Origin: Brasilonema angustatum HA4187-MV1
GTDB lineage: Bacteria; Cyanobacteriota; Cyanobacteriia; Cyanobacteriales; Nostocaceae
Assembly: GCA_019359695.1 (NCBI GenBank)
Contig: JAHHGV010000004.1
Coordinates: 98,031 to 162,030 of the forward strand
DNA: 64,000 nucleotides
Direction of reading: 5' to 3'
Both the position numbers and the translations under genes were made by a program. Below are positions 27,897 to 64,000 of this stretch, piece after piece. The notes under the pieces are model-generated. The model was not told the DNA's origin and ran no database searches. It worked only from the letters and a program-made list of their open reading frames with translations. Each line of letters starts with the position of its first letter. Position 1 is the first letter of the stretch.

Positions 27897-27958
27897 ACTG
27901 TTTCTGGGGTATTGATGATAGGAATATTTTTTAACACTCCCATGCCACGCATGCGATA

Positions 27959-28666: not shown

Positions 28667-28697
28667 AATAGTCTCCTACTTTTTATCGGAAGAAAAG

Positions 28698-29193: not shown

Positions 29194-30534
29194 ATGAAAT
29201 TTCAGCAAAACATAGCGACGGTGCCAGTAGCACAAATTAATATTGACACACCTACAAACAAGAACAACAATGGTGTTGAAGGATTACTTTTTAGCAGTAT
29301 CCCCATTGCACTTTCTATCTTTAGCGCTGTTATATTTGTATGGTTCGTTAAATCTTTTTTGTGTATCTGCAAACCCAATGAAGTATTGGTTCTTTCTGGA
29401 CGTAGGTGGCGTACTCAGGATGGACAAGAAGTCGGTTATCGAGTGCTATTAGGTGGACGGGCTATTCGTATTCCGATTGTGGAAACTGTTAAGCGTATGG
29501 ATGTCACCACTATGCCGGTACGGGTGGAGGTACGGAATGCTTACGCCAAAGGAGGAACACCTTTAAATATCCAAGCAATTGCCAATGTGAAAATTTCCAC
29601 AGATCCAGGAGTTGTGGGTAATGCTATTGAACGCTTTTTGGATCGCGATCGCTCAGAATTAACTCGTGTTTCTCGCGAAACTCTAGAAGGTTATCTGCGG
29701 GGTGTCGTCGCCACCCTCACACCTGAAGAACTCAATGAAGATCGCCTCAGTTTTGCCCACCGTATCGCCTCTGATGTTAGCCGTGACCTTACAAAACTAG
29801 GATTACAACTCGACACCCTGAAAATTCAAAGTGTTTCTGATGATGTAGATTATCTCAAATCTTGGGGACGCAAGCAAATTGCTCTTGTTGTCAAAAATGC
29901 GGAAATTGCTGAATCAAATGCGATCGCCCAAGCAGAACAAATAGAAGCCCAATGTGAGGAACACGCCCAAGTCGCCAAAACCCAAGACAGAATTATTGTG
30001 CTGGAGAAAGAAAACGAACTCCGCACAATCAAGGCAAAGCTAGGACAAAAAGCCCGCTGTGAAGAAGAAATTACCACAGCTGTTGCTCAAGAAAAGAAGG
30101 CAAAAGCTGAACAAGTTCTGCAAGCATTACGTTCAGAATTAGAACGCTTGCGCTTACAAGCAGATGAAATTCTCCCAGCCCAAGCCGAACGCCAAGCCCA
30201 AGAACTCCGCGCCAGAGGGGAAGCCGCTTCTTTGGAAGAAAATGCTAAAGCCGCAGCTTTAGTAAACGATATTCTCTCCCAAGTTTGGCAGCAAACTGGA
30301 ACAGATGCTTCCAAATTATTCCTAATCCAACAAATTGAAACTGTACTCCAAGAAGCAGTGCAGATTCCCAAGCGTATTCAACTCAAGAAAGTCAACGTGA
30401 TTGACAACGGTGATGGAAAATCTTTAGCCAGCTTAGTCAACGTTTATCCCGAAATTGTATTTCAGTTCCTAGAAAGCGTCAATCAAACCCTTGGTATTGA
30501 TGTCACAGGAACTCTCAATCAAGGAAAGGACTAA
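29194..30534 (+). CDS. Flotillin-like SPFH/band-7 protein (FloT/YuaG-like)
   Basis: N-terminal TM, SPFH core (EVLVLSGRRW...GYRVLLGGRAIRIPIVETVKRMDV...RNAYAKGGTPLNIQAIANVKI), then a long EA-rich coiled-coil flotillin tail. Confidence 0.75.
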   Translation: MKFQQNIATVPVAQINIDTPTNKNNNGVEGLLFSSIPIALSIFSAVIFVWFVKSFLCICKPNEVLVLSGRRWRTQDGQEVGYRVLLGGRAIRIPIVETVKRMDVTTMPVRVEVRNAYAKGGTPLNIQAIANVKISTDPGVVGNAIERFLDRDRSELTRVSRETLEGYLRGVVATLTPEELNEDRLSFAHRIASDVSRDLTKLGLQLDTLKIQSVSDDVDYLKSWGRKQIALVVKNAEIAESNAIAQAEQIEAQCEEHAQVAKTQDRIIVLEKENELRTIKAKLGQKARCEEEITTAVAQEKKAKAEQVLQALRSELERLRLQADEILPAQAERQAQELRARGEAASLEENAKAAALVNDILSQVWQQTGTDASKLFLIQQIETVLQEAVQIPKRIQLKKVNVIDNGDGKSLASLVNVYPEIVFQFLESVNQTLGIDVTGTLNQGKD

Positions 30535-31364: not shown

Positions 31365-32636
31365 ATGGAAATAATCGCTTTACTACTGGGAATTTTTGGT
31401 ACTGGAACTGCCGCCGGTTGGTGGGTGATTCGTAACTTATACTATATTTGTCAACCAAGTGAAGTACTCATCTTCGCTGGCAGTCGCACTTCTCTTGGTG
31501 ATGGGAGTTCGGTTGGATACCGTTTAGTGAAAGGAGGTAGTAGGATTCAAACCCCGCTATTAGAGAAAACTTTCCGCATGGATTTGACAAACATGATTAT
31601 TGAGTTGCGAGTATCGAATGCATACTCAAAAGGCGGAATTCCCCTGACAGTTGAAGGAGTCGCAAATATCAAAATTGCTGGAGAAGAACCGACAATTTAC
31701 AATGCAATTGAGCGACTCTTGGGTAAAAGCCGCAAAGATATCGAACAGTTGGCAAAGGAGACGTTAGAGGGAAATCTGCGAGGAGTATTGGCAAACCTGA
31801 CGCCAGAACAGGTAAACGAAGATAAAATAGCCTTCGCCAAAACCCTGCTTGAAGAAGCTGAAGACGATTTGGAAAAGCTGGGATTGGTACTAGACAACTT
31901 GCAAATTAAGAATATCTTCGATGAGGTGCGCTATCTTGATTCAATTGGACGCAAGCAGCAGGCAGAATTGTTGCGAGATGCGCGTATAGGAGAAGCCCAA
32001 GCTAAAGCCGAGGCAATAATTAAAGTTTCAGAAAATAACCGTATTACCAAACTCAAACAAATTGAACGGGATTTAGAAATTGCTAAAGCAGACGCAGAAC
32101 GCAGAGTTAAAGACGCGCTGACAAAGCGGACTGCTATGATCGCAGAGGTAGAAGCGGTTGTTAATGCCCAAGTAGCAAAGGTGCAGGCAGAAGTTGGGGT
32201 GCAAACCGAACGCATCAAACAGGTTGAAAATCAGTTACAAGCTGATGTGGTTGCACCAGCAGAAGCAGAATCCCAACGGGCGATCGCCAAAGCAAAAGGA
32301 GATGCAGCCCGCATTGTTGAACAGGGTAAAGCCCAAGCAGCCGGGACGCAGTATCTAGCCGAATCTTGGCAAAACGCTGGTGCATCTGCCCGAGAAATCT
32401 TCATCTTCCAAAAATTAGAACCATTGTTGCGAATGTTGGCTGCAGGAGTCCCAGAGGTACAGGTAGACAATTTGACTGTCATTGATGCTACAAATGGTGG
32501 TAGTGTTCCCAAAATGGCGTCATTCTTAGAGCAGTTACGGCAGACAACTGGTGTCGATGTTACAAAGGTTATCAATCAATTTAAGTCTGAAGACAAAAAT
32601 AGCAAGTACGAAATCAGATCACATCTGGAAAAGTAG
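31365..32636 (+). CDS. Flotillin-like SPFH/band-7 protein, second paralogue
   Basis: Same architecture as 29194-30534 (EVLIFAGSRT...GYRLVKGGSRIQTPLLEKTFRMDL...SNAYSKGGIPLTVEGVANIKI). Confidence 0.75.
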   Translation: MEIIALLLGIFGTGTAAGWWVIRNLYYICQPSEVLIFAGSRTSLGDGSSVGYRLVKGGSRIQTPLLEKTFRMDLTNMIIELRVSNAYSKGGIPLTVEGVANIKIAGEEPTIYNAIERLLGKSRKDIEQLAKETLEGNLRGVLANLTPEQVNEDKIAFAKTLLEEAEDDLEKLGLVLDNLQIKNIFDEVRYLDSIGRKQQAELLRDARIGEAQAKAEAIIKVSENNRITKLKQIERDLEIAKADAERRVKDALTKRTAMIAEVEAVVNAQVAKVQAEVGVQTERIKQVENQLQADVVAPAEAESQRAIAKAKGDAARIVEQGKAQAAGTQYLAESWQNAGASAREIFIFQKLEPLLRMLAAGVPEVQVDNLTVIDATNGGSVPKMASFLEQLRQTTGVDVTKVINQFKSEDKNSKYEIRSHLEK

Positions 32637-33400: not shown

Positions 33401-34558
33401 ATGAGTTACTCCACCCAACAGCAAATCATCTCTATTCCCATTCCGGCGAAATTTCGAGAAACTGCTCTGGAATTTGCCCAAGAACAACCAACTCAACAAA
33501 AAGCTAAACAAGTGTATGTAAATACTCTAGCTGTACTAGTGGTCAAGAGCTACTTAGAAATGCTGGATATTCCGACTGAATTAGAAGCCAGTTATAGCTG
33601 GAATCAATACGGGCGCTTGATGGCAGATGTTGCAGATTTATTGCTTACCGGAGTAGGACGTTTAGAATGTAGAGCAATCAGGACAGGCGATCGCCTTTGT
33701 TATGTTCCTCCTGATGTTTGGGACAATCGTATTGGTTATGTTGTTGTAGAACTAAATCAAACCTGTAAAGAAGGAAAAATCAGGGGATTTTTACCTGATA
33801 TTCAAACATCACAAATTGACATTGAAGAGTTGCAACCATTGGAAAGATTAATAGAATCTTCCCATCTTGTGCATTTGCGGCAATGGCTAGAAGGTATCTA
33901 CAAATCCCAATGGCAAAGTATTGAAGAATTATCCTGTCAAAGAAGTCCTCAAGTAGCCTTTCGTTTTAGACGGACAGGAGGATTTCAGTTAAATACATCA
34001 CAAGAAGTATGGAAAGTAATTGATCAATTATATCCCCATCGCAGTTGGGAAAACAACTTACCATTAGAACTTTTAGAAAAAATGTCTGGTAATCAAGTTG
34101 AAGACGTAGAATCACCTGAGGATAACATTAACTCTGTTAGTGTTACCGATGTACTTGCTCAGCTTTTAAGAACAAGCGAAGATGAAGAAAAGCGTTGGAA
34201 GCTTGCAGAAACTTTGTGGACGATAGAACCAAAGCACTCTGCTATCAGTGCTAGACGCATCATGGATTTAGGGATGCAACTCGCCAATAATCCAGTGGCT
34301 TTAATGGTAGCAATTTTATCTAAACCTGACAAAACTGTTGCTGTTCTGTTGCGAGTATATCCGATAGGAAACCAGCCCTACCTACCACCAAACTTGCAAT
34401 TAGCTGGATTGTATGAAAATGGACAGCCGTTTCTTGAAGTCAAAGCCAGAGAAGTTGATAATTACATCCAATTAAAATTTTGTGCAGAATTCGGTGAAAG
34501 ATTCGGAGTTCAGGTTAGTATAAATAATGCAAGCATTACGGAACACTTTATCATTTAG
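33401..34558 (+). CDS. DUF1822-like cyanobacterial protein
   Basis: 385 aa. The family name is from memory of cyanobacterial sigma-70/DUF1822/CHAT gene trios. No catalytic motif seen. Confidence 0.35.
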   Translation: MSYSTQQQIISIPIPAKFRETALEFAQEQPTQQKAKQVYVNTLAVLVVKSYLEMLDIPTELEASYSWNQYGRLMADVADLLLTGVGRLECRAIRTGDRLCYVPPDVWDNRIGYVVVELNQTCKEGKIRGFLPDIQTSQIDIEELQPLERLIESSHLVHLRQWLEGIYKSQWQSIEELSCQRSPQVAFRFRRTGGFQLNTSQEVWKVIDQLYPHRSWENNLPLELLEKMSGNQVEDVESPEDNINSVSVTDVLAQLLRTSEDEEKRWKLAETLWTIEPKHSAISARRIMDLGMQLANNPVALMVAILSKPDKTVAVLLRVYPIGNQPYLPPNLQLAGLYENGQPFLEVKAREVDNYIQLKFCAEFGERFGVQVSINNASITEHFII

Positions 34559-34586: not shown

Positions 34587-37097
34587 GTGGACATGCGGGT
34601 TATCTTCGGGATTGAACAAGGCAGTTTTGAGAAAGGATTTCCTGTCAGAGTTAGAATTGGCGAAGAAGGTAGACCTGATTATGACGAATTTTCTGGTAGG
34701 TTACCGCCCGCATTGGCAGTTAAGGAAAACTACGAAAATTGGCAAAGAATTTATCGTAACTTACCAGCCAATTGGTTAATCACCCTTCCTGAGAGTCAAA
34801 TAACAAATGTATCTACTTTAGAAGATTGTAATCAAGCTGCTCAAAAGTTTCAATCCAGTTTCAACGAATGGTTAAATCAACCATCAGTACGAAAATTAGA
34901 GCGACAATTTTTACTAAAAATTGGTAATTTACAGGATGTGCGCTTTATTTTGCAAACGCAAGAATCTTTGCTACAGCGACTTCCTTGGCATTTATGGGAT
35001 CTTTTCAGTCATCCCAAACCGGAAATTATAGTAAGTTCGGAGTACGAACCATCTAAAAAGAAGTTAAAAACTCCTGTTAAAATCCTCGCCGTTTTGGGCG
35101 ACAATCAAGGTATCAATATTACACAAGATTTGTCAGCCCTAGAAAACAATTTACCAGGCGCAATAATTGAATCGTTAATAGAACCATCATCTCAAGAACT
35201 GAGAGATAAATTATGGACGAAATCTTGGGATATTTTATTTTTTGCCGGACACAGTTGTAGCCAACAAGATGATAGTTCGGGAGAGATTAAAATTAATGCC
35301 AACGAGAGTTTACCGTTGGAACATCTACGCCATAGTCTCAGACATGCTGTCCAAAAAGGATTAAAACTAGCAATTTTTAACTCTTGCGATGGACTTGGAC
35401 TGGCACGTAATTTGGCTGATGCACGCATTCCCTATACAATTGTCATGCGCGAGCCTGTTCCCGATATAGTAGCACAACATTTTTTGGAATATTTTCTCAC
35501 GGCATTTGCGGCTGGTGAATCTCTATATGCATCTGTACAACAAGCTCGTGCACGCTTGCAAGAAGAATGGGAAAATCAGTATCCTTGTGCTTCGTGGCTA
35601 CCCGTTATTTATCAAAATACCGCAGCAGCAGAACTGAAATATCCCCGACAGCATCAACAGCAAAGTTGGAAAAAAGTTGCTTTGCAAACAGCTATTGTTG
35701 TCGGTGCAATAGCAAGTTTTGGTGTTATTTCATGGCGTGTTATTGATGAATTTCAATCCCGTGCTCGGTTTAGTTCTGGCGATAAAATATTAGTGAGGAC
35801 ATTCACAACTTCCTATAAAAAAGAGGGCGTACAGGCGTTTCGACAGGAAAATTACAACCTAGCAATCAGTAAGTTTGAAAAGTCTTTGCGGCAGTATCCT
35901 AACGATCCAGAAACGTTGATATATCTAAATAATGCCAAGATTGCTCAAAAACCAGCACTGACAATTGGTGTTCCCGTTCCCATTGCCACTAACCCCAATG
36001 TTGCCCAAGAAATTCTCCGGGGAGTGGCACAAGCTCAACAAGAGATAAATCATCAAGGTGGTATGAATGGGAAGTTATTGAAAGTTGAAATCGCAAACGA
36101 TGATAACAATCCTGCTATTGCTGTAAAGGTTGCTGATAGATTTGTGCAAGAAAAAGATATATTAGCAGTTGTTGGGCATAACAGCAGCGATGCTAGCCTT
36201 CCAGCCTCTGAGAAATATCAGGCGGGAAAATTGGTGATGATTTCACCAACCAGTAGTTCCACAAGATTAACAGATCGCTCAGATCGCACCGACGGTAACT
36301 ATATCTATCGGACAGTTATCAGCTTTACGACAATTGCAGATGCTCTGGCGCAATATACTAAAACTACTGGCAAAAACAGAATTGGTACCTGTAATGATTC
36401 TAACGCAGCAGACCAGTCATTTAAAAATGATTTTGAGAAGGCAATTGAGCAAAAAAAAATTCAATTAATTAATATTGATTGCGATTTTGCGTCCAAGAAT
36501 TTCCAGCCAAAAACTATTATAAAAAATGCAAAAGAACAAGGTGTAAATGCCATACTTCTGAACCCTCAAGTAAACAGAATGGATAGAGCGATTGCCGTAG
36601 GCAGAGCTACGCTTAACGCACTCGCCAAAGCAAATCAAGGTCAAATTACGTTATTAGGAAACCCCAGTTTACAAACCAAAGATACTCTGGCTGCTGGCGA
36701 TGCTGTTAACGGGATGGTGATAGCAGTTCCTTGGGACGCCACCCTCTCCCCCGACAAAAACTTTGTCCAAAATGCATACAAATTATGGGGTGATACAGAC
36801 TTAGTTACCTGGCGTACAGCTACCGCCTTTGATGCTACCAAAGTCATTGCAGCAGCACTTAAACAAAAGGATACTAGAGACGGAGTACAACAAGCGTTAT
36901 CTGGTACTTTTTCCCTACAGGGAGCAACAGGTGCAATTAAGTTTTTACCTTCAGGCGATCGCGTTGATAATGCTGTATTAATACAAGTCAAACCCAATCC
37001 CAAAGCTTCCACTGGCTACAGCTTTGAACCAATAAAACCCTATGCAAAGCCGCATCAGTCTAGGGGACAAAATTTTAGTTCAAGACAACCTCAGTAA
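34587..37097 (+). CDS. CHAT protease domain - TM helix - TPR-like linker - periplasmic LivJ-type ligand-binding domain fusion protein
   Basis: Caspase-like His/Cys dyad context (ILFFAGHS ... LAIFNSCDGLG). TM VALQTAIVVGAIASFGVISW. C-terminal type-I PBP block (ALTIGVPVPIATNP...ILAVVGHNSSDASLP...KLVMISPTSSS). Confidence 0.65.
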   Translation: MDMRVIFGIEQGSFEKGFPVRVRIGEEGRPDYDEFSGRLPPALAVKENYENWQRIYRNLPANWLITLPESQITNVSTLEDCNQAAQKFQSSFNEWLNQPSVRKLERQFLLKIGNLQDVRFILQTQESLLQRLPWHLWDLFSHPKPEIIVSSEYEPSKKKLKTPVKILAVLGDNQGINITQDLSALENNLPGAIIESLIEPSSQELRDKLWTKSWDILFFAGHSCSQQDDSSGEIKINANESLPLEHLRHSLRHAVQKGLKLAIFNSCDGLGLARNLADARIPYTIVMREPVPDIVAQHFLEYFLTAFAAGESLYASVQQARARLQEEWENQYPCASWLPVIYQNTAAAELKYPRQHQQQSWKKVALQTAIVVGAIASFGVISWRVIDEFQSRARFSSGDKILVRTFTTSYKKEGVQAFRQENYNLAISKFEKSLRQYPNDPETLIYLNNAKIAQKPALTIGVPVPIATNPNVAQEILRGVAQAQQEINHQGGMNGKLLKVEIANDDNNPAIAVKVADRFVQEKDILAVVGHNSSDASLPASEKYQAGKLVMISPTSSSTRLTDRSDRTDGNYIYRTVISFTTIADALAQYTKTTGKNRIGTCNDSNAADQSFKNDFEKAIEQKKIQLINIDCDFASKNFQPKTIIKNAKEQGVNAILLNPQVNRMDRAIAVGRATLNALAKANQGQITLLGNPSLQTKDTLAAGDAVNGMVIAVPWDATLSPDKNFVQNAYKLWGDTDLVTWRTATAFDATKVIAAALKQKDTRDGVQQALSGTFSLQGATGAIKFLPSGDRVDNAVLIQVKPNPKASTGYSFEPIKPYAKPHQSRGQNFSSRQPQ

Positions 37098-49881: not shown

Positions 49882-51420
49882 ATGGCTCGCACGCCCACAC
49901 TAACTTTTGATCGTGGCACATTAATTTTGCATCCACCACCACGCGGCAGGGCTTGGATGGATTTTGCTACATGGGATGATAGAGTAGAAAAATTCCGCAT
50001 TCCGGCTATTCAATACCGTGCTTTGGTGGAAGCAATGCAAGCCCAAGATACTAATTTTATCGATGAAGCTAAGGCGTTTTATCCGATAGAGTTGGTTCCG
50101 AGTCTGGAAATGGAACCTTATCCCCACCAAAGTGAGGCGTTAGCTGCTTGGAAACTCGCGGGAAGACAAGGAGTCGTCGTGCTTCCCACCGCAGCGGGAA
50201 AGACGTATCTGGCGCAAATGGCGATGCAAGCGACGCCGCGCACGACACTTATTGTCGTGCCAACGCTGGATTTAATGCATCAGTGGTATGCTCATTTGAA
50301 GGCGGCGTTTCCTGATGCTGAGGTTGGGTTACTTGGCGGTGGTTCGCGCGATAGAACACCTGTACTTGTTGCCACTTATGATAGTGCGGCTATCCATGCG
50401 GAAAGTTTGGGGAATCTGTATGCTTTGTTAATTTTTGATGAATGTCATCATTTGCCAACAGATTTTAGTCGGGTGATTGCGGAATATGCGATCGCACCCT
50501 ACCGTTTGGGACTATCTGCGACACCCGAACGCACTGATGGTAAACACGCTGACTTGAATTTTTTAATAGGTAGAGAAGTTTATCGCAAAAGGGCTGAAGA
50601 TTTAGCAGGGAATGCGTTAGCAGAACATGAAGTTGTACAAATTAAGGTGAAATTATCACAAAATGAGCGGGAAAAATACACTCAACTGATTCAAGTTCGC
50701 AATGATTTTTTGAAGGAATCAAAGATTTCTTTGGGGAGTCTTCAAGGCTGGCAGAGATTTGTGCAAATGAGTGCGCGATCGCAAGCTGGGCGTAGAGCCA
50801 TGTTAGCGCATCGGGAAGCGAAAGAAATTGCTTTGGGTACTGATGGGAAGATAAGAGTTCTTGCTGATATATTAACAGAACATTATCCAGAAAGAGTTTT
50901 GATTTTTACTGCTGATAATGCGACAGTTTACCACATTTCTCAAAATTTTCTGGTTCCAGCAATTACTCATCAAACTCCTGTCAAGGAACGGCATGAAATA
51001 TTAACAAAGTTTCGAGAGGGAGAGTTTAAAACTTTGGTTGCTTCTCACGTGTTGAATGAGGGTGTTGATGTTCCTGCGGCTTCTGTTGCGATTATTTTAT
51101 CTGGTACTGGTTCAACACGGGAGTATATTCAAAGATTGGGAAGAGTTTTAAGAAAAGGTAAGGATAATAAGAAGCAGGCGATTTTGTACGAGGTGGTGGC
51201 GGAAGATACGAGTGAGGAAGGGACTTCAGCGAGGAGAAGAGGTGTGGAGAAGAAAAATGAACCGCCAAGACGCCAAGAACGCCAAGAGAAAGAGGAGAAG
51301 AAAGGGAATTTACGGGTTATTTATGGGAGTGGGAAGGAAAAGAGTCTTAAAGCTGCTGAACAGTTGGAGATAAATTATAAAGTTCAAAAGAAACCGCCGA
51401 TAAATACGGATGAAACCTGA
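49882..51420 (+). CDS. XPB/ERCC3-like SF2 DNA helicase with a Lys/Glu/Arg-rich C-terminal tail
   Basis: N-terminal DRGTLIL damage-recognition-like segment. LPTAAGKT (motif I), FDECHHLP (motif II), GLSATP (motif III), QRLGRVLR (motif VI). Confidence 0.65.
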   Translation: MARTPTLTFDRGTLILHPPPRGRAWMDFATWDDRVEKFRIPAIQYRALVEAMQAQDTNFIDEAKAFYPIELVPSLEMEPYPHQSEALAAWKLAGRQGVVVLPTAAGKTYLAQMAMQATPRTTLIVVPTLDLMHQWYAHLKAAFPDAEVGLLGGGSRDRTPVLVATYDSAAIHAESLGNLYALLIFDECHHLPTDFSRVIAEYAIAPYRLGLSATPERTDGKHADLNFLIGREVYRKRAEDLAGNALAEHEVVQIKVKLSQNEREKYTQLIQVRNDFLKESKISLGSLQGWQRFVQMSARSQAGRRAMLAHREAKEIALGTDGKIRVLADILTEHYPERVLIFTADNATVYHISQNFLVPAITHQTPVKERHEILTKFREGEFKTLVASHVLNEGVDVPAASVAIILSGTGSTREYIQRLGRVLRKGKDNKKQAILYEVVAEDTSEEGTSARRRGVEKKNEPPRRQERQEKEEKKGNLRVIYGSGKEKSLKAAEQLEINYKVQKKPPINTDET

Positions 51421-51645: not shown

Positions 51646-52860
51646 ATGCTACCAACAGAGTTACTAAGTCACAGGCAAAATGGGGAAGAAATTATCCCGA
51701 AGAGACTGAAGATTGATGATAATCATTTGGCGATCGCCACTGAGTTAACAAGTTGTTTTCAGGAGGCGGTAGGTGAGACTCAAGGTACACTTGAGCGTCA
51801 GTTGTCGGAGTTGGAGGGGGATACTCCAGATTATAGACTCAAGCGGGGTTTAGCTTATATCCTCAAAAGCAGTTTCTCCACTTTTGAGGTGGTGAGTCCT
51901 TTGGAACCTCAAATGTTACGAGAAAGGGTTTTTGCTTTGGCGGCGAAGTCTGCTCCGAGTCGCGAGTTGACAGAAACGACTTTAACAAAGATTGCTGATG
52001 AATTGAGTCATGAACTTGAGCGTGAAGTTTTGCCAAAACAAGTTGGTGAAGGATTATATGCGGATTTGTCTGAGAATAAGATTTTAACTGCTTTTGATGC
52101 GCCAGCACCCCATGATTTATTGCATCGCTACAATTTATCTCAGGTGCAGGGGGTGTTTTATAGAGCAAGTCAGTTGGTGATAAATGCTCATCGCAATGTG
52201 CCTGGACAATATAAGCTTTTGTTTCGCTACCTCAAGTTGTTTCAATTAATGTCTTATATTGAGGGAGATGCTGACCACGGTTTTACAATTACAATTGATG
52301 GTCCGACGAGTTTGTTTACTCCCAGTACGCGGTATGGTTTGGCTATAGCGAAGCTAATCCCGGCTTTACTTCATGTCACAAAATGGAGTCTTTCCACTAT
52401 ATTACAAATTCGTGATCCATACACAAATACATGGAAAACGGGACGTTTTACTCTCAATTCTGAATGCGGTTTGGTGTCTCATTATTCCACTGGTAAACCA
52501 TACGATAGTATGTTGGAAGAGTCTTTTGCTGATAAGTGGGAGTCAACAAAAACGGATTGGGTGTTGGAGCGAGAGGTTGACTTAATTCCTATTCCTGGAA
52601 GTGTGATGATTCCTGATTTTAGATTAGTCCATCCTGATGGGCGATCGCTGTTATTAGAAATAGTTGGTTATTGGCGACCAGAATATTTACAAAAGAAGTT
52701 TTCCCAAGTACGACGTGCAGGACGTGATGATTTGATTTTGGCAATTTCAGAGCGATTGAATCTGGAGAAAGCCGGAGTTCAATTAAATGATGTGCCTGCT
52801 AGAATTGTTTGGTTTAAAGATAAATTGTTGCCGAAAGCGGTGTTAGCAGTGATCGAGTAA
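51646..52860 (+). CDS. Bax1-like nuclease (DUF790), the usual XPB partner
   Basis: 404 aa immediately downstream of the XPB gene. C-terminal PD-(D/E)xK-like segment IPDFRLVHPDGRSLLLEIVGYW. Confidence 0.55.
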   Translation: MLPTELLSHRQNGEEIIPKRLKIDDNHLAIATELTSCFQEAVGETQGTLERQLSELEGDTPDYRLKRGLAYILKSSFSTFEVVSPLEPQMLRERVFALAAKSAPSRELTETTLTKIADELSHELEREVLPKQVGEGLYADLSENKILTAFDAPAPHDLLHRYNLSQVQGVFYRASQLVINAHRNVPGQYKLLFRYLKLFQLMSYIEGDADHGFTITIDGPTSLFTPSTRYGLAIAKLIPALLHVTKWSLSTILQIRDPYTNTWKTGRFTLNSECGLVSHYSTGKPYDSMLEESFADKWESTKTDWVLEREVDLIPIPGSVMIPDFRLVHPDGRSLLLEIVGYWRPEYLQKKFSQVRRAGRDDLILAISERLNLEKAGVQLNDVPARIVWFKDKLLPKAVLAVIE

Positions 52861-54432: not shown

Positions 54433-54520
54433 CTGAATGGAGAACTGTAAAGGACAAAGAAAGACTTTCAGCTTTTGAGATCATAGTGGTATTTATACAA
54501 TGAAAATTTTCAGAATATGC

Positions 54521-57500
54521 CTACGGCGAACCCAGTGACTGATAACACCAGCTAGGACGGCGCAAAAGATTAAAGGTATCAATGTAACGAATTCGGCTGT
54601 CTGGTGCTACTGTAGCAACAGCATCAGTTAATAAGCCAATGGGGTTATTGAGGTTCCACAACGGATGAACAATAATAACTGTTATATCACCCACTGTAAA
54701 ACCAGGCAAACTTCCGAAATATTGCGGAGAACAACTACTAAAAGATGCACAAAAAGCATCTCGAAGTTCAGTTGCTGTTTGTCGCCAGTTTTCTAAGTCT
54801 GGGGCAGAAAAATCGCCGTGCAAACCGCAACTAAAATTATTATCAGCTAATGCCTTGAGTAAAGAGAGACCACTACGCCAATCGAGCAAGCCGTGATAGT
54901 TTATATTGCGGTAGTGTCGTAAGCACTCATAACAGGAAGAATCACATTTCTTGCGATGCTGCTGTGACATCATGGCATCAACAAAAGTATTTTGTGCTTT
55001 GATAATTTTTTCTATGAGGATGTTTTGCCAATGTTGGGCAAGCCATAATGTAAAACCAGAACCATTGGGTAGGCGATCGCTAATTACAATTTCTCCTACT
55101 TTTTCACCAGTTTCTTCTAGTTCAAGCTGCCGTAAACCACTCACATCTAATTCATCTGGATCAATATCTAATTCCTGTGCTGCGACAGCACGGATAATAA
55201 AAGCCGCAGAATAGAAAGCAGCTTTAATAGCTGAACCAGGTGCAATGGGATCGAGACATAATCCAGTGGGTACAGATGCGGGTTTGATGCGGAGAACGCC
55301 AGTTGTTTTCGGTGCAACAATAGCCAGTGCTTCAGATTCACCCGGTTCTTTAAAAATTATCCCATTGGATGGATTCTGAAATCGTTCATCAATCCATTGA
55401 AATTCTAAAATTTTTTCACCACGTCCAAAAGAAGCTTTACCTACTGCTCCTTTAAACAAATTCCCGCGATTATCATTAACACGGAATACTCTGCCAGTTT
55501 GAGAAAAAGCGGTCTGAGTATTTGTATTATCTATGAAGTTAAAATTTTGAGGTTGCGACTCAGCAACACTACCCGCACCTGAGATTAATACATCATGTTC
55601 TTCCTTTGCATCTGTACCATAGTTGAGGCTAGTACGAAAAGCCAAAGGTACTGCCCATTTAAAAACTTTAAAACCTTGTTCTGGTATTGCTCCACATTTG
55701 GGACAGACCGTATTTTCAAATTCATTATCAGAAGTTTCTGTATGTTGGCAGCGCTGACATCTCAACATCCACTTTCGGGAAGAAAGCGGGTCATTCTCAG
55801 CAGGAACAAAGCCATTTTTACTGTCTGGAAGTAACGGTGCAGTAAAACCAATAGAGGTGTAAATTCGTTTATCTTTAGTCTTTTCTGCACCTGGGGCAAA
55901 TTCCGCAATAGCTAAATCTAAATCACGGTCGATAGTAGCAATCTTCTTGTTTTTTGATGGATTGTGATGATACAAATCCCGAACTCTGGATGGCATACCG
56001 AACATGGGCAAAACACCACCTTCTGCAAGTAGTTCTGCTAATCCCTTTCCTGTCAATTCTTTATTATTTGCACACTCGTTTATCTTGTTAAACAAGTCCT
56101 GACGCGCATAATTTTCAAAAAAGATGGGAGCGATATTTTTTACACCAATAAGCAAATCATTTACTACCTCGGTAACTTCAGGTGAACTCTGTAACCATTG
56201 ACAAACTTTCTGACGACGAGATTCTTTTTCTAGCCAGTCTTTTACTGTACCAAATTCCCCGTGACTATCTGGCGGCGTGGGACCATCCCACCACTTAACA
56301 TCAGCACATAGAAACGCACGTCGCAGACATTCTTTTGCTAATAGACGCCGTGCAATTTCAATTTGTGACATCGATAGAAAGGGAACTGGTGGCGGGTCAC
56401 CTGTAATTTTTTCGGGATGTTGATAATAAAATTCATCGTGACTGTTACCACGACAAATAGTTAATACAATGGCGAAAGGTTGACCCCGACGACCTGCACG
56501 ACCTGCTCTTTGTTGGTAATTAAAACGCATGGGTGGCATATTTGCCATCACTACAGCCATTAAACTACCAATATCAATTCCCACTTCCATTGTGGTAGTA
56601 ACACTTAGGATGTCGATAGTATCAACCACTGGGATAAAATCTCTATCTTGTTCGCCGATGTTGACAACAATATTGCGAAAATGGCGCTGTCTTTCTGCTT
56701 GATCGTCGGTTTGTCCTGTCAATTCTTCACAATGCAAACGCATGGGTTGACGCTTATTAACTGCTTCTGTCGCGTAATAATTACGAGCGTATAAATCTGA
56801 GCATTTTTTATTAGGTGATATGGGTAATTCTGCAAGACAATTTGTACAGATACCGGCTGCACGATGTAGGTGAGGGCGTCCACATGATGTGCATTGCCAA
56901 ACTGGATCACCGGGAACTGCAACTCGTACCCATAAATGCAGCGGGTTAATTTTTAAATGTTCATGTTTACCATGTTGGCAAATAGCTGACCACAATGCAT
57001 CAAATAATAGCTTCTCAGAAAGCTTATGCTGTGTCACGCATTTAGTGACATATTTTTTCAATCTGGCTTTTGCATCTTGCCAACTGTTCCAATCCTCAGC
57101 AGGATACTTAGGATACCGATACAAATCACCAATGACACGCAAGCATCCGTTGCATATTTCGATAAAAACTTCTGGTGAAAGTTTGCATTGTGTAGCTAAT
57201 TTATTGATTTCTTCTTGTGGAAAATTAAGACAAACATAGCCTAGAGCGGATGCTTCAATGCTATAAAATAAGCGACTAAAGAAAGTATCGCATACTTCAG
57301 ACTCTGTTTTTGATATAAGAGTATATCGCTTGTCAATTGCTTCCCTAGAAGAACCAGCTTTCCATTTTGGTGATTGAGATACAAAATCAAAAAATCCTGT
57401 CCAATGATGTAATTTCTTGTCGTAAGAAAACTCTTGGTCATTGATATCGTTACCAGCAGGATTTATGCCTAAACTAGCTAATCTCTGAATAAGTACTCCT

Positions 57501-60205
57501 GGAGTATCTTTTTCGCCTTCAAATAACACCTTAAGTGAAACGATGCGCGTTTTAGCTGTTTCTTTAATTTCATTGATGAGATTTTGAGCCTTATTTCGGC
57601 GATTGATATACAGTTCTAAATCATCATCATCAAGACCTTCTGGCAAAGGTTTATTAGCATTTTTTATAGTTTTTTTAAACTTTTCGACAGCATCAGGGTT
57701 ATTTTGAGCAAATTCTCTTGCTTCTAAACGAACAGGTTGACCATATTTTTGAATATCTTCTAATAGGTAAACTTTACCAACAGCTAATTGATTAAGTTCA
57801 TCAAATATTGCCTCACGAACAAGGTCAGAGTAATGAGTACGTTCAATCCCATTTGATATTGAAGCGGCATTTTCACGACTATCAGAAAATACGACTAATT
57901 TACGAGAGTCTGATTTTTCTGGTAACTGATAAAAGATTTCTTTAGATAGCAGTTGACTCAACCTAGAAAATGCAGTACGGAAGCCTCTAATTGAAGATTT
58001 CCAAGACCTTCGCCTAGTGTAATCTGCACCACAACATGGGCAAAGAGAGGGTTGTGCTGCCATAAATGCTTGCGTTTCTGGTGATGTATCTCGCAAGTTG
58101 AAAATATAGCCTTTTATCCACTGATTATCTGCTGTATCTGAATCAGGTTCTTCTAAAGTAACGCGACTACTACGAGTGTCTAACCAGGCTTTATCCCACC
58201 AAGCTTTTTCTTTAATTTTATCGCCTCTTGATGGTTGGTTCCAGCCTTTTATATTTAATTCTTTGTCATAAAGATTTGTAGAGGGATAAAATATAGCATA
58301 TTCACGATATGTTCGCCGTTCTAAAAAATTACCAATTTGGCGGTCAGGAATGCTTTCAATATTTGGTTCTGTAGGCAAAAGTTCCCAACCATTACCGTCC
58401 TTTAGTTCCAGACGGTTTCCACCATAAAAGACAGTACCGCACTGTTCGCAGTAAAGCATTTCTAGCACTCGAAATCCATCATGAACTATTGGTGGATTTT
58501 TTACAAAGAGTCTACCTACCGGTCGGTTTTTACTACTTTCATTCTCATGACAATCATAATTTGGCTGAGTGCAAGCCCAAAGCCCATCAATATTTCTGAA
58601 AAACCAGTGCAACCTAAACCGAAATGATTCTAAAGATTTATCTTCAGATAAACCACGAGCAATTAGCAATCCCTTTACTGCTAAATTAAGATTTTCTTCA
58701 TCTAAATTCTCACCAAAAATCCCTTTAGCAAATTGCCTGAGAGATACTGCACGAATTGTATTGTCGAGCTTACAAGAGTTAAGCATTATAGCGCCTACAG
58801 TATCGCTTTGTGATGACAAGACTTGTAAACATTTCTTGAGAAAAGTGGCTTCCTCTGGTGCGTTTGCTAAGGCGATAAATGGTTCACTCTCTAAAAATTT
58901 TTGTCCGACAATTGCTGGAATTGCCTCAGGATGACCAGGGATAATTTGTTCGGAATGCCATTCTGTACCGAAGAATTCAGATAAGAATTTTAAACTTTGT
59001 GGGTCATTTGGTTCAAGAGACGCACTAGAGGCAAGAATTTTTAATTTAGGATGACCAGGATAAAGTTCCAAACGTTGCAGCAGCAGGCGAATCAGGTAAG
59101 CAACTTCTGTCCCAGCAGTGCCACGATAAAGGTGTAATTCATCAAGAATTAAGTGAAAAACACTGCCTTCTTTCTTTAACCATTCCCGTGTTTTATCAAA
59201 AATATTTTTATCAATATCTCGCATCAGCATAATGCTGAGCATGGAATAATTAGTAATTAAAATATCAGGTGGATCATCTTGCATATCCCAACGACAGCGC
59301 ATTTCCGCCCCATCTAAACGCGGGAAAAAGAATGTTACATCCTTGTCACCAGTTTTCTTAAAATGTTCCTCAGCAGCTTGGACTGATTTTTGCATCTGCT
59401 GCATTTCTTCAAGAAGTTCTTCTATCTTGTCCCCGTTAGGTTTACCATTTTGTTTGTACTCATGCCCTGGTACAGGTGTGACGCCGTTGTATCTGCCAAA
59501 ATAAATTCTGTTGTCTTTTCTATTATTTTTAAACCAATCTCGCGCCTTGTCAGAATCTAAAGCGCGGCGTAACCTGGTAAGTTGGTCTTCAACAAGGGCA
59601 TTCATCGGGTATAAAATTAGTGCCCTTACCGCAGCATCTCGTTTTTCATGATTCCTTTGAGGTAGGCGATAAGATTGCTTAAAACTGCGGTTTTTCTTTA
59701 CTAGAGGGTTGCATTTATTTTGCCAATCTTTGTTTTCCCACCAGTCATCGATATGCGGTGGCGCTGCTGACGGTGCTTGCCAGTTTTTTGATTCTTTGGC
59801 TAGATAAGCAAACAAGGGTAAGAGGAAAGATTCTGTTTTACCTGAACCTGTACCAGCAGTAACAACTGCATTTTGACCCGATAATCCTTGACGGAGCATT
59901 TCCAGTTGGTGAGTGTATAATTCAAAATCACCAACCAGTCCACAGGAAGCTAATTCTTTAAAATCTAGCAGTGCAGACTTATCTAAACCTGGAACATCTG
60001 AAAGTTGTAAATTATTGATTGTTTTCCCAGATTTTTGATAACGAGGTAAAGGTTCGATCCAAGGTTCTTGATAAAATACTCCTGGTTCACGCAAACGTCG
60101 TTCCCGTTCCTTCTCAATTTCAGGAAATTGTGTACCGAAAGCAGTTTTAACATAAAGGATTAAGTTGTCGCGTAGCTTTTCAAAAGCGCCGATAGGGTCT
60201 TTCAT
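54521..60205 (-). CDS. Giant (1894 aa) YprA/DUF1998-type SF2 helicase with zinc-ribbon-rich insert and C-terminal DUF1998-like zinc module (DruE/DrmA-like)
   Basis: [10 protein letters not shown] (motif I), [11 protein letters not shown] (YprA-type motif Ic), [16 protein letters not shown] (DExH), [13 protein letters not shown] (motif VI). Cys clusters CQRCQH...CPKCG and [14 protein letters not shown] near the C-terminus. Confidence 0.75.
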
Positions 60206-60211
60206 TTATCC

Positions 60212-61285
60212 TCACAATTTGACGTCTAAAGATTGTATTAATAGAGTTTGACCTAATTTAGCCGCAGTCATTTCTGCTATTTGAGGGGGAACGTCTCGAA
60301 ATAAGTTGAAACCTTTGACATTAAAACCGTTGACCACTTCTTTCGGTTTTGGGATAGAAGAATTAGAAGTGAGTTTTTGTAATGGGAATTTTTCTACTAT
60401 TGGTACGTATCCTGAGCATAAAGTTAAAGCTCTTTCTAGCACTTTTGGTAGTTTAGCGCCAACCGGAACTGCCATCATAAATCGACGTTTGTCGTAAATG
60501 ATAACTTTAATCTTAGCAGCATTAATAACAGCATATCGCCCCCAGTCACGTTCAACTTGGGTACATCTTTCTTCTTGCCAAAGATAATATGTTTGGGTTT
60601 TGCGAGAGGGATGTTGATATTTGCTGAGACGGATATTCGGCACTCTCATTCCCGACGCACCTCCCATTGATGAGGGAGAAGGGAGAAAGCGTAATATATT
60701 AGGATCAAATGTTTGACGTTTCCAGTTTAATTCTGACTCATTAGACCACTGGCAATTAGTTAAATAATCTTCAAGGGAGGCGGAAAAATTTAAAAGCGAC
60801 CAAGCTGATGGTGTTTCTATAAAATTCATTGCTAATTGAGAAGCAATTTCCTGTAATTCTGATACATCCTCAGCTTGTACAGCTATTCGCTTAGGTACTA
60901 ATACTAATTCAGCCTTTTGTTCTGTCACTTCAATCTTTATGTTTCGTCCAACAGATTGACAAGTATTTCTTAATTTATCTATAGTGTTTGGTGTTCTAAA
61001 TCCTGCTAAAATAGCTTGAGGAAAACCAGCGCTAGGTAATCTTATTAATACAGGGGGAGTGACATAAACTTTTTTGTTATTGTCAGTGAAATCAAATTCA
61101 CAGTGACCCAATGAATCCAGAGCGCGAACAGTTGATAATCTTTTATCTTTAATGTCATCCTCCTCCTCACTACAAGCAGTTCTATTAAGACTGTAAAGAT
61201 AATAAAATGCCTGTTTAAGAGATAACCAAGGCATTTCCTTTTTAGCAGAAATGACATAGAGTAGTTCGTCGCTATCCCTGGACAC
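60212..61285 (-). CDS. Hypothetical protein (357 aa), middle gene of the helicase cassette
   Basis: 6-nt gap to the helicase start. No recognisable domain. Confidence 0.6.
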   Translation of the reverse strand: MSRDSDELLYVISAKKEMPWLSLKQAFYYLYSLNRTACSEEEDDIKDKRLSTVRALDSLGHCEFDFTDNNKKVYVTPPVLIRLPSAGFPQAILAGFRTPNTIDKLRNTCQSVGRNIKIEVTEQKAELVLVPKRIAVQAEDVSELQEIASQLAMNFIETPSAWSLLNFSASLEDYLTNCQWSNESELNWKRQTFDPNILRFLPSPSSMGGASGMRVPNIRLSKYQHPSRKTQTYYLWQEERCTQVERDWGRYAVINAAKIKVIIYDKRRFMMAVPVGAKLPKVLERALTLCSGYVPIVEKFPLQKLTSNSSIPKPKEVVNGFNVKGFNLFRDVPPQIAEMTAAKLGQTLLIQSLDVKL

Positions 61286-63341
61286 GCTTTGCCTCCTTTT
61301 GGAATTTTTCCCATAATTTCTTCAGACGAATATCGTCGATAGGAGGCAGAGTTCGTTTGTGATTATCCAACAAGATTTTTTTCCAAGAAAACAATTTTTT
61401 CTTATCCTTACAAATTAATACCTTAAGTTCTGATTCTTGTAAGCTTGTACCACAAAATATCGCTCTATCAAAAAAACTTCCTTTGGCAATAGCCCAAACA
61501 GGATACCAATCAATAGGTAGTGATTCTTCTGGATAAATTGCAACTTGCCCCGGTTCTTTACCCACAAAAATAATGCGTTGGTTTCCTTGGATTGGCAAGA
61601 GAGTATTGAAGTTAAAAGCAGGACAATCAATTCCCTTTACCAATGCTCCAATCACTCCTGGAGAGTTTTCATGTCGATTTGTTGTCACCAAACTAAAACT
61701 GTCAAGATATGGCGTTTTTCTGCTGATTCGGGAAGGAAAATCTTCTACTAAAAATAGAGATAAACGCTTAATAATATCTTTACCCTTGCAGGCTTCAATT
61801 TCAAGCTTGGTGTCGGCTGGAATCTCTGGAGAGAGTTCATAAATACCTTCTCCAGATTTGTCTTGTAACAGCTTGCCATTGCAATATACTTTTACGGATT
61901 CATCACCACCTTGTAAAACTAATTTTGGTGGTGCGAATTTAAAGAAATAATTTCCTCTGTCAAGGCGTACACCACCTTCTAAATCAAGTCTGATGCTAGT
62001 CGAAAAGGACAAGATAGGATATTCGCTTTTTACTATTTCATCACTATGGGCAGCAGCCACTTTAAAAAAGTACCATCCGGTAGGTAAACCTTTGACAGTA
62101 TGCAGTTTCTCAAAGCCTTCACAACTGGATGCACCCCATTTTTCTAACAAACTGCAACACTCTTGCTGCACTGCTAAATAAAAAGGCAAACCTTTAGGAA
62201 TTTGCACTACTTCTACAAGTCCAGGTAACCCCAAACTTCTGCCTTCAACAAACACTCGGATTGGCGAAGCTGGCAATTTAAAACACCATTGTTTGTTAGT
62301 GGATTCCATCCGCAAACCCTGACGCCAATCCAATTGGGAGGCGTCGATATTTTTACCATTTAATTCTTTGCGGATAGGTGAAGACCAACCATTACCCTGT
62401 TCAGTGCAAGAGTAAGAATCGTGATTAGAATTCAAAATCAGACCATCTTCAGGAAATTCATGCTTTGTCGTACAACGTAAGGTGAAGCTGGCACGTTTGG
62501 CAATCAAGTCGAGTTTGCAACATAGTCTTAAGACACCGTAAACCTGAGTTCTTCCTTCAGACGGTATTTCGGTAGTTCCATCCCAGGTGCGTAACTCATT
62601 AACAATCCTTTCGATCAGTGCGTGACGTAGTTCATCGCCTTCGCTGGTTTCTTCCAGTAATCGCAGCGTTCGTCTTCGCAGATAGTTACGTCCGTGTTTG
62701 ACTAACAAAGAAGCTGTATGTCTTTCAGAGGGAAGGGAAATAGGTTCTAAGCCTGCTTCTGCAAAAATAACGGGTAGTGCCTTCAGTTCCCTCTGCGTCA
62801 AAAGAGTTTGGGCGATGGGTATACCGACGTGAACCAACCTGCCAGTAATATTTGCGTTGAAAATGCCCAGTTCACCTGATTTATCGACATTTGCCCATTT
62901 CTCTAAATCTTTCCAGAGTGTTTGCATCTGGTCAAAGTGGGGATATGGTCGGGATGTCGGTTCTTCACCCAGTAATTCCCGCAAGCGCGGATAGTAGGCT
63001 TTAGAAGAAAAATCACCTTCAGTACCTGCTGCCAAAACAAATAAAGCTAAGTAGCCTATATATGGAGGATAACCTTGTCGATGGTATCGCCATTCCGGGT
63101 TTTGCATACTCCCCCAGGCTTTTTTACAGATACCATTTATATTTACTGCATTTTTTACTGTTTGGATAAAGTCTTGGTAGGCAACCCCTTTAGATGCGCC
63201 TAAGGAATTAATAAAATCCTCTGTGACGTAAAGATTAACAGTACGCCCCGCCATTTCTGGGTTGAAGAAATGCTGTGCGATTTTATCGTTCCACTCTGAG
63301 TAATTTATAGTAGTTTTTACAGATAGATTGACGGCTTTCAT
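61272..63341 (-). CDS. Hypothetical protein (689 aa), first gene of the helicase cassette
   Basis: Overlaps the 357-aa gene by 14 nt (translational coupling). No recognisable domain. AT-rich promoter-like region upstream (63342-63420). Confidence 0.6.
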   Translation of the reverse strand: MKAVNLSVKTTINYSEWNDKIAQHFFNPEMAGRTVNLYVTEDFINSLGASKGVAYQDFIQTVKNAVNINGICKKAWGSMQNPEWRYHRQGYPPYIGYLALFVLAAGTEGDFSSKAYYPRLRELLGEEPTSRPYPHFDQMQTLWKDLEKWANVDKSGELGIFNANITGRLVHVGIPIAQTLLTQRELKALPVIFAEAGLEPISLPSERHTASLLVKHGRNYLRRRTLRLLEETSEGDELRHALIERIVNELRTWDGTTEIPSEGRTQVYGVLRLCCKLDLIAKRASFTLRCTTKHEFPEDGLILNSNHDSYSCTEQGNGWSSPIRKELNGKNIDASQLDWRQGLRMESTNKQWCFKLPASPIRVFVEGRSLGLPGLVEVVQIPKGLPFYLAVQQECCSLLEKWGASSCEGFEKLHTVKGLPTGWYFFKVAAAHSDEIVKSEYPILSFSTSIRLDLEGGVRLDRGNYFFKFAPPKLVLQGGDESVKVYCNGKLLQDKSGEGIYELSPEIPADTKLEIEACKGKDIIKRLSLFLVEDFPSRISRKTPYLDSFSLVTTNRHENSPGVIGALVKGIDCPAFNFNTLLPIQGNQRIIFVGKEPGQVAIYPEESLPIDWYPVWAIAKGSFFDRAIFCGTSLQESELKVLICKDKKKLFSWKKILLDNHKRTLPPIDDIRLKKLWEKFQKEAKRVQG

Positions 63342-64000
63342 GTACTTATTATAATCTGTATATTTATTGATATTGCATAAAGTCTACTTTTCATAAGACG
63401 TGAAAAACAGAGTTTAGTTCATAGAAGATTTATGCGCGGATGATTGACGCGAATTTTGAACCTAGTGGTTCGCCACACACGCTATGACGAGGTAATCAAG
63501 GAATGGGGGAGTATGACGGGGTAATGAGGAGATGGCACAGATGCAGTGATGGGAGAGTTTCTCTCTACCTCCCCACTTCTGGATTAATCAAAACGTCACG
63601 GTATAATTTCTGAGATACGAGTGGGACGGCAGTGGTGTATCCCAAATTATGAGTATAAATGCTTACTAAATCGGGGACTTCAGGGTGATTTAGGTGAGCA
63701 ACGTTAAACCTATATCTACTAATCTGTTTGCGGAAGGTTTTGGTTTAGATCTGGGGATCGAGCAGCCAGGTTTCCAAACGGTAAGCGTGGTAGAAATAGA
63801 TTCTGGCGGGACAAATAAGCTGTTGCGCATTAAAAATGCACAACAGCAAGGCAGAAGGCAGAAGGAAAGAGGGTTTCAATGATTGATTAGACTAAAAGAA
63901 TATGCAAATTCAAAGCGCGACAGCTTACCATTGCAACTTTAGTTTGGAGACAAAATTCTTCAAAAGCAATTTCCCGCCTACAGCAATCACATTTAGTTTA

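Follow-up and report, generated by a model that had tools for sequence, protein, structure and literature searches.

A 64 000-bp stretch of the Brasilonema angustatum HA4187-MV1 genome (contig JAHHGV010000004.1, positions 98 031 to 162 030; hereafter the window) contains a cassette of three minus-strand genes, which an earlier note, made from the letters of the sequence, had singled out as a candidate defence operon. Our analysis confirmed three coupled open reading frames (ORFs) of 689, 357 and 1894 amino acids (aa), here named druF, druL and druE; the druF and druL genes overlap by 14 nt, and a gap of 6 nt separates druL from druE. All three ORFs are uninterrupted across 8.8 kb, and Shine-Dalgarno-like sequences precede the starts of druL (AAGGAGG) and druE (GAGGA). 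The cassette is located between core genes, as had been claimed, with a CMD/AhpD-like gene and def on one side, and elsewhere the window is unremarkable cyanobacterial chromosome with, among others, an alkane cluster, accA, folE and trpF. The suggestion that the cassette is AT-richer than its surroundings turns out to be modestly true: the G+C content at third codon positions (GC3) is 0.26-0.34, compared with 0.36-0.50 in the four nearest neighbour genes, and the overall G+C content is 0.396, compared with 0.421. A search for integration signals found no tRNA, tmRNA or Rfam family in the window, and no integrase adjoins the cassette.

Over its full length, each of the three proteins matches a PADLOC model for Druantia type IV, with E-values from 1e-118 to 0. 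The best model for the 689-aa protein is DruF4 (PDLC00054; 858.5 bits, residues 12-687 against positions 1-678 of 678), and that for the 357-aa protein is DruL4 (PDLC00056; 392.9 bits, residues 5-356 against positions 2-327 of 330). The 1894-aa protein matches DruE4 (1943.9 bits) and DruE2 (1940.9 bits), both over the full length, compared with 638 bits for DruE1 and no more than 361 bits for the DruE3 models; the 689-aa protein also matches the DruF2 model (577 bits). Pfam and NCBIfam gave no matches for DruF and DruL, and the earlier note therefore could not place them. Its observation that they show no methylase, PLD, ATPase or recognisable nuclease domain agrees with our profile and structure searches, and the families to which they belong are DruF and DruL, not housekeeping ones.

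Druantia type IV consists of DruE, DruF and DruL without DruM and DruG (PADLOC; Payne et al. 2021, PMC8565338), and 168 instances from 11 phyla were reported in that study; type IV has also been recovered among four DruE clades, in which it makes up 18% of 566 loci (preprint 10.64898/2026.05.13.724313). At the present locus, DruE is 1894 aa long (about 1800-2100 aa are expected of a Druantia DruE), belongs to the YprA family and has the DUF1998/MZB module. DruF lies beside it, DruL is present, and DruM and DruG are absent: the operon comprises three genes only, no DruG match occurs among the scanned neighbours, and the methylase is a remnant of ~40 codons. Judged by these matches, the cassette is a Druantia type IV locus with intact druF-druL-druE, an unexceptional example of a subtype already known but uncharacterised. 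The system was already catalogued in 2021 and is not new. Of the earlier proposal, 'Druantia-like or new defence system', the first half stands and the second does not, since the type IV definition fits exactly a gene set that had been thought to match no canonical Druantia layout. Nor is the cassette DruC/DruD/DruE without DruA/DruB, as the gene sizes had seemed to suggest; its partners are DruF and DruL, which tie it to type II and not to type I.

That the largest protein is a DruE-type (YprA-family, DUF1998) defence helicase, as first supposed, is borne out by its DruE scores of >1900 bits. All of the YprA-family motifs cited, including QRAGRAGR, are present, DELHLYRG begins at aa 355, and the protein keeps all of its ATPase motifs. 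Searched as regular expressions, G[ST]GKT, DE[LIVM]H and QRxGRxGR were each matched in 29 of 29 full-length DruE homologues. Pfam recognises DEAD, Helicase_C (aa 1195-1241) and MZB. The boundaries of the RecA lobes and inserts were placed from motif positions. The extra material that had been read as one zinc-ribbon insert of ~650 aa between the RecA lobes is, to judge by motif positions only, not one insert but two, one from motif III to the VVFSDSR strand (aa ~401-765) and one inside RecA2 (aa ~801-1195), with Cys clusters in each (C545/C552/C586/C589, C722/C724/C725, C1018/C1021 and C1105/C1108/C1120/C1123). The C-terminal DUF1998-like four-Cys module also exists (C1650, C1754, C1758 and C1761, plus H1750). 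In an alignment of 21 DruE homologues, H1750, C1754, C1758 and C1761 are invariant and C1650 is nearly so, and Pfam MZB/DUF1998 matches aa 1670-1762 with 21.9 bits (E 2.9e-4), just below its cut-off of 24.2 bits.

Beyond this zinc module lies a conserved domain of ~120 aa (aa ~1776-1894), which was missing from the earlier note. Its invariant residues are H1847, W1850, T1877, F1878, N1879, R1882, R1883 and W1886, and it is shared with the DruE2-class structure 9wae_A (E 4.8e-32). Bell et al. (2025, PMC12458937) describe the C-terminal domain of type I/II DruE as a Vsr-like nuclease that has been inactivated; a profile of the window's DruE C-terminus searched against the PDB retrieved only DruE structures, and its hhalign comparison with a rhizobial Vsr gave a probability of 0.75%. 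No PLD domain of the type III kind was matched in DruE by PADLOC or Pfam. In the PDB, DruE as a whole matches 9wae_A (E 1.7e-237), type III-A DruE of Escherichia coli (9tu7_Y, E 1.1e-45) and MrfA (6znp, E 6e-13), the last of these aligning to aa 1198-1272. The closest solved relative is a 1970-aa 'Helicase' represented by seven structures (9wae, 9waf, 9wds, 9wdu, 9wdv, 9wdw and 9wdy); the aligned fragment of 9wae_A classifies as DruE2, and no paper citing entries 9wae-9wdy was found in the searched literature. Matches of DruE to PADLOC models of DISARM, Dpd, BREX and Cas3 are limited to generic helicase motifs and were dismissed.

The counterpart of DruL in type II is the C-terminal third of long DruF2 proteins (1011-1030 aa): a DruL homologue aligns to positions 733-1028 of the 1030-aa DruF2 model. 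In other genomes, DruF and DruL are fused into single proteins of 1008-1099 aa (P0196, P0230, L028 and L031). Because such natural fusions exist, and because the two genes are translationally coupled here, DruF and DruL are predicted to act as one functional unit. By gene content, type IV therefore looks like a type II that lacks DruM and DruG and whose DruF is divided into two proteins. The structure model of DruF (pLDDT 82.6) consists of a helical N-domain (aa ~14-252), a tandem Ig-like array and C-terminal helices. The helical N-domain is the best-conserved region, and N18, D145, E147, Q178 and E185 occur in at least 90% of 123 diverse homologues; the family numbers 2517 representatives of 50%-identity clusters at E <= 1e-3. 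Structural matches of the model are of the ICAM/NCAM/cytokine-receptor kind, as the paper on DruH, the accessory protein of type III, reports for that protein. DruH gave structural matches to ICAM and NCAM only and is an unexpected 3'-5' exonuclease, whose putative catalytic site was assigned to a helical N-domain by structural prediction and mutagenesis (2026 preprint). The modelled layout of DruF matches the one reported for DruH, a resemblance that is architectural only.

Scanning a genome collection with the DruL profile yielded 33 loci, in 32 of which DruF, DruL and DruE are colinear on one strand, so that the trio is conserved as a unit. Those 32 loci are mostly cyanobacterial, with one each from Pyrinomonadaceae, Omnitrophica and Acidobacteriota. 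The junctions are conserved as well (an F/L overlap of 8 nt in most loci and an L/E gap of ~11 nt), and dN/dS values of 0.19-0.41 in all three genes indicate that druF, druL and druE are under purifying selection. Closely related copies occur in Scytonema, in Hapalosiphon and on a Nostoc plasmid (Table 1). Homology with the Scytonema and Hapalosiphon copies begins 8 bp past the druE stop, and each of the three genomes has flanking genes unrelated to those of the other two. Furthermore, the cassette is missing from this site in a relative whose CMD protein is identical and whose def-CMD DNA is 96-98% identical; there, homology to the window ends at 54497. Because the 93-94% identical modules have unrelated flanks and the relative with the empty site lacks the cassette, these comparisons identify it as an acquired accessory module beside core genes, in agreement with its lower GC3 and with the first impression of acquisition. 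The alignments describe a horizontally mobile module of ~9.3-10.4 kb, inserted here beside the conserved def-CMD gene pair of a chromosome of the heterocyst-forming (Nostocales-like) type.

Two related loci are unusual. In Pseudanabaena sp. Salubria-1 (L030, 8608-10684), the DruL match extends over ~2.1 kb and not 1 kb, and druL seems to be interrupted by ~1 kb of additional DNA. The conjugative plasmid pOSC7112.01 of Oscillatoria nigro-viridis PCC 7112 (L040, 4965-13787) carries a divergent Druantia IV-like trio of a 564-aa DruF-like protein (with N-domain matches only), a 441-aa DruL-like protein and a 1928-aa DruE that is 32% identical to that of the window, followed by two small unannotated genes. 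A DruL homologue is also annotated on an Okeanomitos plasmid.

The Scytonema and Hapalosiphon modules include a gene for a complete C5-cytosine methylase (392 aa, PF00145 E 2e-68, and 388 aa, respectively), placed head to head with druF. In the window only a 5' remnant is left, the translation of which, VSNVKPISTNLFAEGFGLDLGIEQPGFQTVSVVEIDS, matches the N-termini of both full-length methylases. By these alignments, the gene has been deleted here except for ~40 codons. The filler in its place contains a strong terminator-like hairpin with a 13-bp stem followed by a T-rich tail (63819-63847, minus strand), which starts 4 bp past the homology breakpoint. Promoters presumably lie in the intergenic region between druF and the methylase remnant, where a promoter-like site was found on the plus strand (63328-63355). 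Only eight of the 32 loci have a C5-methylase within 10 kb, yet no other family is commoner among the neighbours; cyanobacteria usually carry the F-L-E trio bare. Since most loci have no methylase and this copy has lost its own, self-protection probably works without a dedicated methylase.

Nucleases accompany the trio in some genomes. Three non-cyanobacterial loci (Table 1) have a PD-(D/E)xK (Cas4-like) nuclease, PADLOC 'DruK' or a homologue, within a few bases of the druE stop, and in one of these (L032) it is followed by a DruM2-like C5-methylase; none of the recovered cyanobacterial loci has a DruK. Two loci with fused DruF-DruL (L028 4656-7614, 1040 aa; L031 4764-7607, 1008 aa) have, upstream on the same strand, a 551-591-aa double-PLD (DrmC-like) protein and a 364-aa protein weakly matching PDC-M43B, and may represent another variant of Druantia, one in which the nuclease is supplied in trans. 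In Hapalosiphon sp. MRB220 (L041, 12057-18830) the methylase is intact, and druE is called at 1766 aa with a gap of ~400 bp after druL, which suggests that its 5' part is disrupted, the reverse of the pattern of decay in the window.

Table 1. Features of the Druantia type IV module in the window, and related loci. Positions are those of the window unless a locus is named.
Feature	Position	Strand	Remarks
druF (DruF4 class)	61272-63341	-	689 aa, ATG start
druL (DruL4 class)	60212-61285	-	357 aa, GTG start; alpha/beta (ferredoxin/ACT-like) modules; detached C-terminal module of long DruF proteins
druE (DruE4/DruE2 class)	54521-60205	-	1894 aa, ATG start; SF2 YprA-family helicase, Cys-rich inserts, MZB/DUF1998 zinc module, conserved C-terminal domain
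DruE aa 1-400, N-terminal region and RecA1	59006-60205	-	motif I GSGKT 120-124, motif at 199-208, motif II DELH 355-358, motif III SAS 394-396
DruE aa 401-1195, two large inserts flanking first RecA2 strand (VVFSDSR, 771-777)	56621-59005	-	domain assignment inferred
DruE aa 1196-1290, second half of RecA2	56336-56620	-	motif V at 1203, motif VI QRAGRAGR at 1232
DruE aa 1641-1775, MZB/DUF1998 zinc module	54881-55285	-	C1650, H1750, C1754, C1758, C1761
DruE aa 1776-1894, conserved C-terminal domain	54524-54880	-	~120 aa
Divergent intergenic region, druF to methylase remnant	63342-63693		352 bp; conserved with Scytonema and Hapalosiphon within the module
5' remnant (~40 codons) of C5-cytosine DNA methyltransferase gene	63694-63815	+	122 bp, divergent from druF
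Filler replacing ~1.03 kb of methylase gene	63816-63931		116 bp; blastn breakpoints; unique in window
Methylase 3' end/flank homology, far side of deletion	63932-63980		matches L041 (Hapalosiphon) 8511-8464, 89.8% identity
Homology to Scytonema sp. PCC 10023	54513-63815		93.9% identity
Homology to Hapalosiphon sp. MRB220	54513-63815		93.6% identity
Homology to Nostoc plasmid pCENA543b	54513-63248		83% identity; MOBF-mobilizable plasmid, copy beside relaxase
DruK-type nuclease gene	L032 9828-12067		
DruK-type nuclease gene	L034 16705-17823		
DruK-type nuclease gene	L027 8228-9232		

Compared with other type IV loci, which show a patchy distribution over several phyla, the window copy has the same gene content, order and sizes and differs in nothing essential; its own features are an 11-aa N-terminal extension of DruF, common to the Nostocales clade, the C5-methylase remnant and the lack of DruK. 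The resemblance to type II (DruM-DruF-DruG-DruE; 'Type IV CoCoNuT' in Bell et al. 2025, PMC12458937) is seen in the near-equal scores of DruE on the DruE2 and DruE4 models, in the DruF2 match, in the equivalence of DruL to the last third of DruF2, in the DruM-like C5-methylase carried by relatives of the module and in the DruE C-terminal domain, common to the DruE2-class 9wae. However, the window locus has no DruG (an inactivated McrB/CnuB-like coiled-coil protein) or DruG-like ORF, its methylase is deleted down to 122 bp, and its DruF is split. Type I does not fit: the accessory proteins match only DruF and DruL models (PADLOC, E <= 0.01), not DruA-DruD, and DruE1 scores 638 compared with 1944 bits. 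Type III (DruH-DruE) has a homologous DruE core with inserts and, as here, a large accessory protein without recognisable sequence domains, whereas the window has no PLD in DruE, and a 689-aa DruF with a 357-aa DruL in place of a single 1119-aa DruH. The DruH family (STY4851/ECs_5259; PF27205 and PF27201) is matched by neither DruF nor DruL in Pfam or in the PADLOC DruH profiles. DISARM, too, is built on a YprA-family helicase with DUF1998, and a methylase sometimes accompanies it, but the DrmA profiles reach only 29-34 bits, confined to the RecA2 motif region (aa ~1197-1271), and the operon contains no DrmB, DrmC PLD nuclease, DrmD/DrmE or DISARM adenine/cytosine methylase. The idea of a fused DrmA and DrmB can thus be set aside.

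Type III is the only Druantia type that has been characterised mechanistically (10.64898/2026.05.13.724313,.724758 and.722862; PMC13192584). Its DruE, a 3'-5' helicase, loads on exposed single-stranded DNA (ssDNA) or junctions (10.64898/2026.05.13.724313, among the type III preprints) and acts with DruH, which binds or processes ssDNA, while the PLD domain of DruE degrades DNA (2026 preprints). By analogy, DruE of the window would be an ATP-driven 3'-to-5' ssDNA translocase/helicase of the YprA/MrfA family, loading on exposed ssDNA or on single-strand/double-strand junctions of replicating phage DNA. The DruF-DruL unit, which like DruH has a conserved helical domain, an Ig-like array and further modules, would recognise or process a phage DNA structure and would license DruE. 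The killing step might fall to the helical domain of DruF, if its conserved D145, E147 and E185 belong to a cryptic active site, to the non-canonical C-terminal domain of DruE (invariant H1847, N1879, R1882 and R1883) or to host nucleases acting on DNA unwound by DruE. We consider it likely that the window holds a complete, intact Druantia type IV locus on a mobile module, and that its DruE is licensed by DruF-DruL in the manner of type III. A stronger version, in which DruF-DruL fills the role of DruH and may even be very distantly related to it, the Ig array sensing DNA structure and the N-domain (D145/E147/E185) hiding a nuclease or DNA-processing site, seems to us rather doubtful.

Several results weigh against the type IV reading or its proposed mechanism. 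DruE lacks the PLD nuclease that is the effector of type III, and profile and structure searches detected no nuclease fold in DruF, DruL or DruE. Given the DruK genes of the non-cyanobacterial loci, the cyanobacterial trio may be missing an effector, and the loss of the methylase here could be the first step of decay. A consensus scan of the minus strand of the intergenic region found no convincing druF promoter. The searched literature holds no anti-phage experiment on any type IV system, so we infer defence from homology and context. Homology to DruH was sought by hhalign against a DruH alignment (31 sequences, built from an E. coli plasmid Druantia III locus), with the DruF alignment (63 sequences), the diverse DruF set of 123 sequences, N-terminal sub-alignments and the DruL alignment as queries. 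Every probability was <1%, and the best region varied by run; the analogy with DruH is therefore one of architecture. One colinear N-terminal pairing of DruF with DruH ('AGxxVYLYVTEE' with 'DGRPLYAYRCTDxE' and 'HVGLPIAQ' with 'CEGGLPL') was seen once, with E 0.58, and was rejected.

These points bear most directly on the possibility that the cassette is a decaying or crippled relic of an ancestral methylase plus DruFLE system with type II-like logic, in which case the trio, having no methylase, DruK or PLD, would be inactive or becoming pseudogenes. The loss of ~1.03 kb of the methylase gene to a 116-bp filler would fit such decay, as would the presence of DruK directly after druE in non-cyanobacterial relatives, the double-PLD protein upstream in the two loci with fused DruF-DruL, and the N-terminally short druE of Hapalosiphon with its 400-bp gap after druL. 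However, all three ORFs are intact over the 8.8 kb, every helicase motif is present, and dN/dS remains at 0.19-0.41. Moreover, a methylase within 10 kb is lacking in 24 of the 32 loci, and DruK in every cyanobacterial one, so that the bare trio is the common, conserved form, and we regard a relic as unlikely. Even less probable, in our estimation, is that the module works mainly in the rivalry among mobile elements, by keeping out plasmids or other elements or by stabilising its carrier, and not in host defence against lytic phages. Close copies do lie on the MOBF-mobilizable Nostoc plasmid beside the relaxase and on the conjugative Oscillatoria plasmid, a DruL homologue is annotated on the Okeanomitos plasmid, and the module occurs in different chromosomal contexts with about 93-95% identity. 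Nevertheless, this pattern is indistinguishable from the ordinary carriage of defence genes on mobile elements, most loci are chromosomal with housekeeping neighbours, and the literature describes the discovery and validation of the related Druantia types I-III as anti-phage systems.

Membership of the YprA family also raises the question of a housekeeping DNA-repair operon of the MrfA/YprA type, since DruE is detectably related to MrfA of Bacillus subtilis (6znp), with which it shares the SF2 core and the C-terminal zinc-binding MZB/DUF1998 module, matched weakly in Pfam. The similarity is weak (50 bits), and MrfA is a 751-aa protein without the large Cys-rich inserts or the extra C-terminal domain, whose partner is the exonuclease MrfB; no partner of that kind occurs here. 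DruE falls outside the MrfA group: its TIGR03817 score is 89.7 bits, where the cut-off is 874.1, compared with >1900 bits for the DruE profiles, and the E-value of MrfA (6e-13) stands against 1.7e-237 for 9wae_A. The patchy distribution, the plasmid-borne copies, the variable context and the near-identical relative without the cassette at the site are likewise at odds with housekeeping, and we hold this explanation to be very improbable. A genuinely new defence system outside the catalogued Druantia layouts, to which the blank Pfam and NCBIfam results for the two small proteins might have pointed, is the least credible of all; it is refuted by the full-length PADLOC type IV matches (E 1e-118 to 0) to a type published in 2021. 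An intact Druantia type IV locus remains the preferred reading.

Other features of the window deserve mention. An XPB-type helicase gene (49882-51420, plus strand), encoding an XPB damage-recognition domain, ResIII and Helicase_C, is followed by a gene for a DUF790 protein (51646-52860, plus strand). This pair adjoins def/CMD and the Druantia cassette and is absent from the relative with 96-98% identical def-CMD DNA; in PADLOC, the helicase has a partial PbeA-like helicase match only. DUF790 is, we assume, the family of the archaeal nuclease Bax1, the partner of XPB, and the pair may be a second accessory DNA-processing module. A CRISPR array (15423-17493, plus strand) comprises 29 copies of the 36-nt repeat CCCTACCGATTGGGTTAAATCGGATTAGTTGGAAAC at a spacing of ~70-79 nt, of which the first six end in A, not C, and none is expected by chance. 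There are no obvious cas-sized ORFs right beside the array; an ABC-2 transporter gene starts at 17527, and a nearby 1063-aa ORF (18632-21823, minus strand) has no real family match, only a sub-threshold similarity to apolipoprotein-like helical repeats. A DUF1822 protein (33401-34558, plus strand) precedes an 836-aa protein with CHAT protease-like and periplasmic-binding-protein domains (34587-37097, plus strand); the GC3 of this pair (0.30-0.31) is low like that of the Druantia cassette, and neither member has a PADLOC match. The same lack of PADLOC matches applies to two SPFH/Band-7 proteins of 446 aa (29194-30534, plus strand) and 423 aa (31365-32636, plus strand), whose genes form a co-directional run with unannotated ORFs of 236 and 240 aa. 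Finally, the region 27766-28659 contains 7-nt tandem repeats (TTATCAG, 7 copies; TGTTCAC, 6.6 copies) upstream of an ORF with a 24/48/96-nt tandem repeat (28372-28659); the overlapping ORFs here (27959-28666 and 28377-28760) have no Pfam match.

As a discovery the locus is of small value, because a routine PADLOC run would label it druantia_type_IV. In the searched literature, however, Druantia types I, II and IV have no published mechanism, and the locus is useful as a compact three-gene version without a recognisable nuclease. Natural variants that differ in one part are available, with or without the C5-methylase, with or without DruK, and with DruF-DruL split or fused, and the DruF model, laid out as reported for DruH, the sensor-exonuclease of type III, is a further asset. 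Few defence systems have been tested in cyanobacteria, and the variants of this locus make specific and cheap experiments possible there. If DruF-DruL were indeed the counterpart of DruH, one logic would hold for all Druantia types: by processing an intermediate of phage DNA, an accessory protein would license DruE. The bare trio of cyanobacteria would, on this view, work independently of methylation and without a canonical nuclease, stopping phage by helicase action together with a cryptic or host nuclease, and the tolerated loss of the methylase in this genome would be a natural experiment in self-protection without one.

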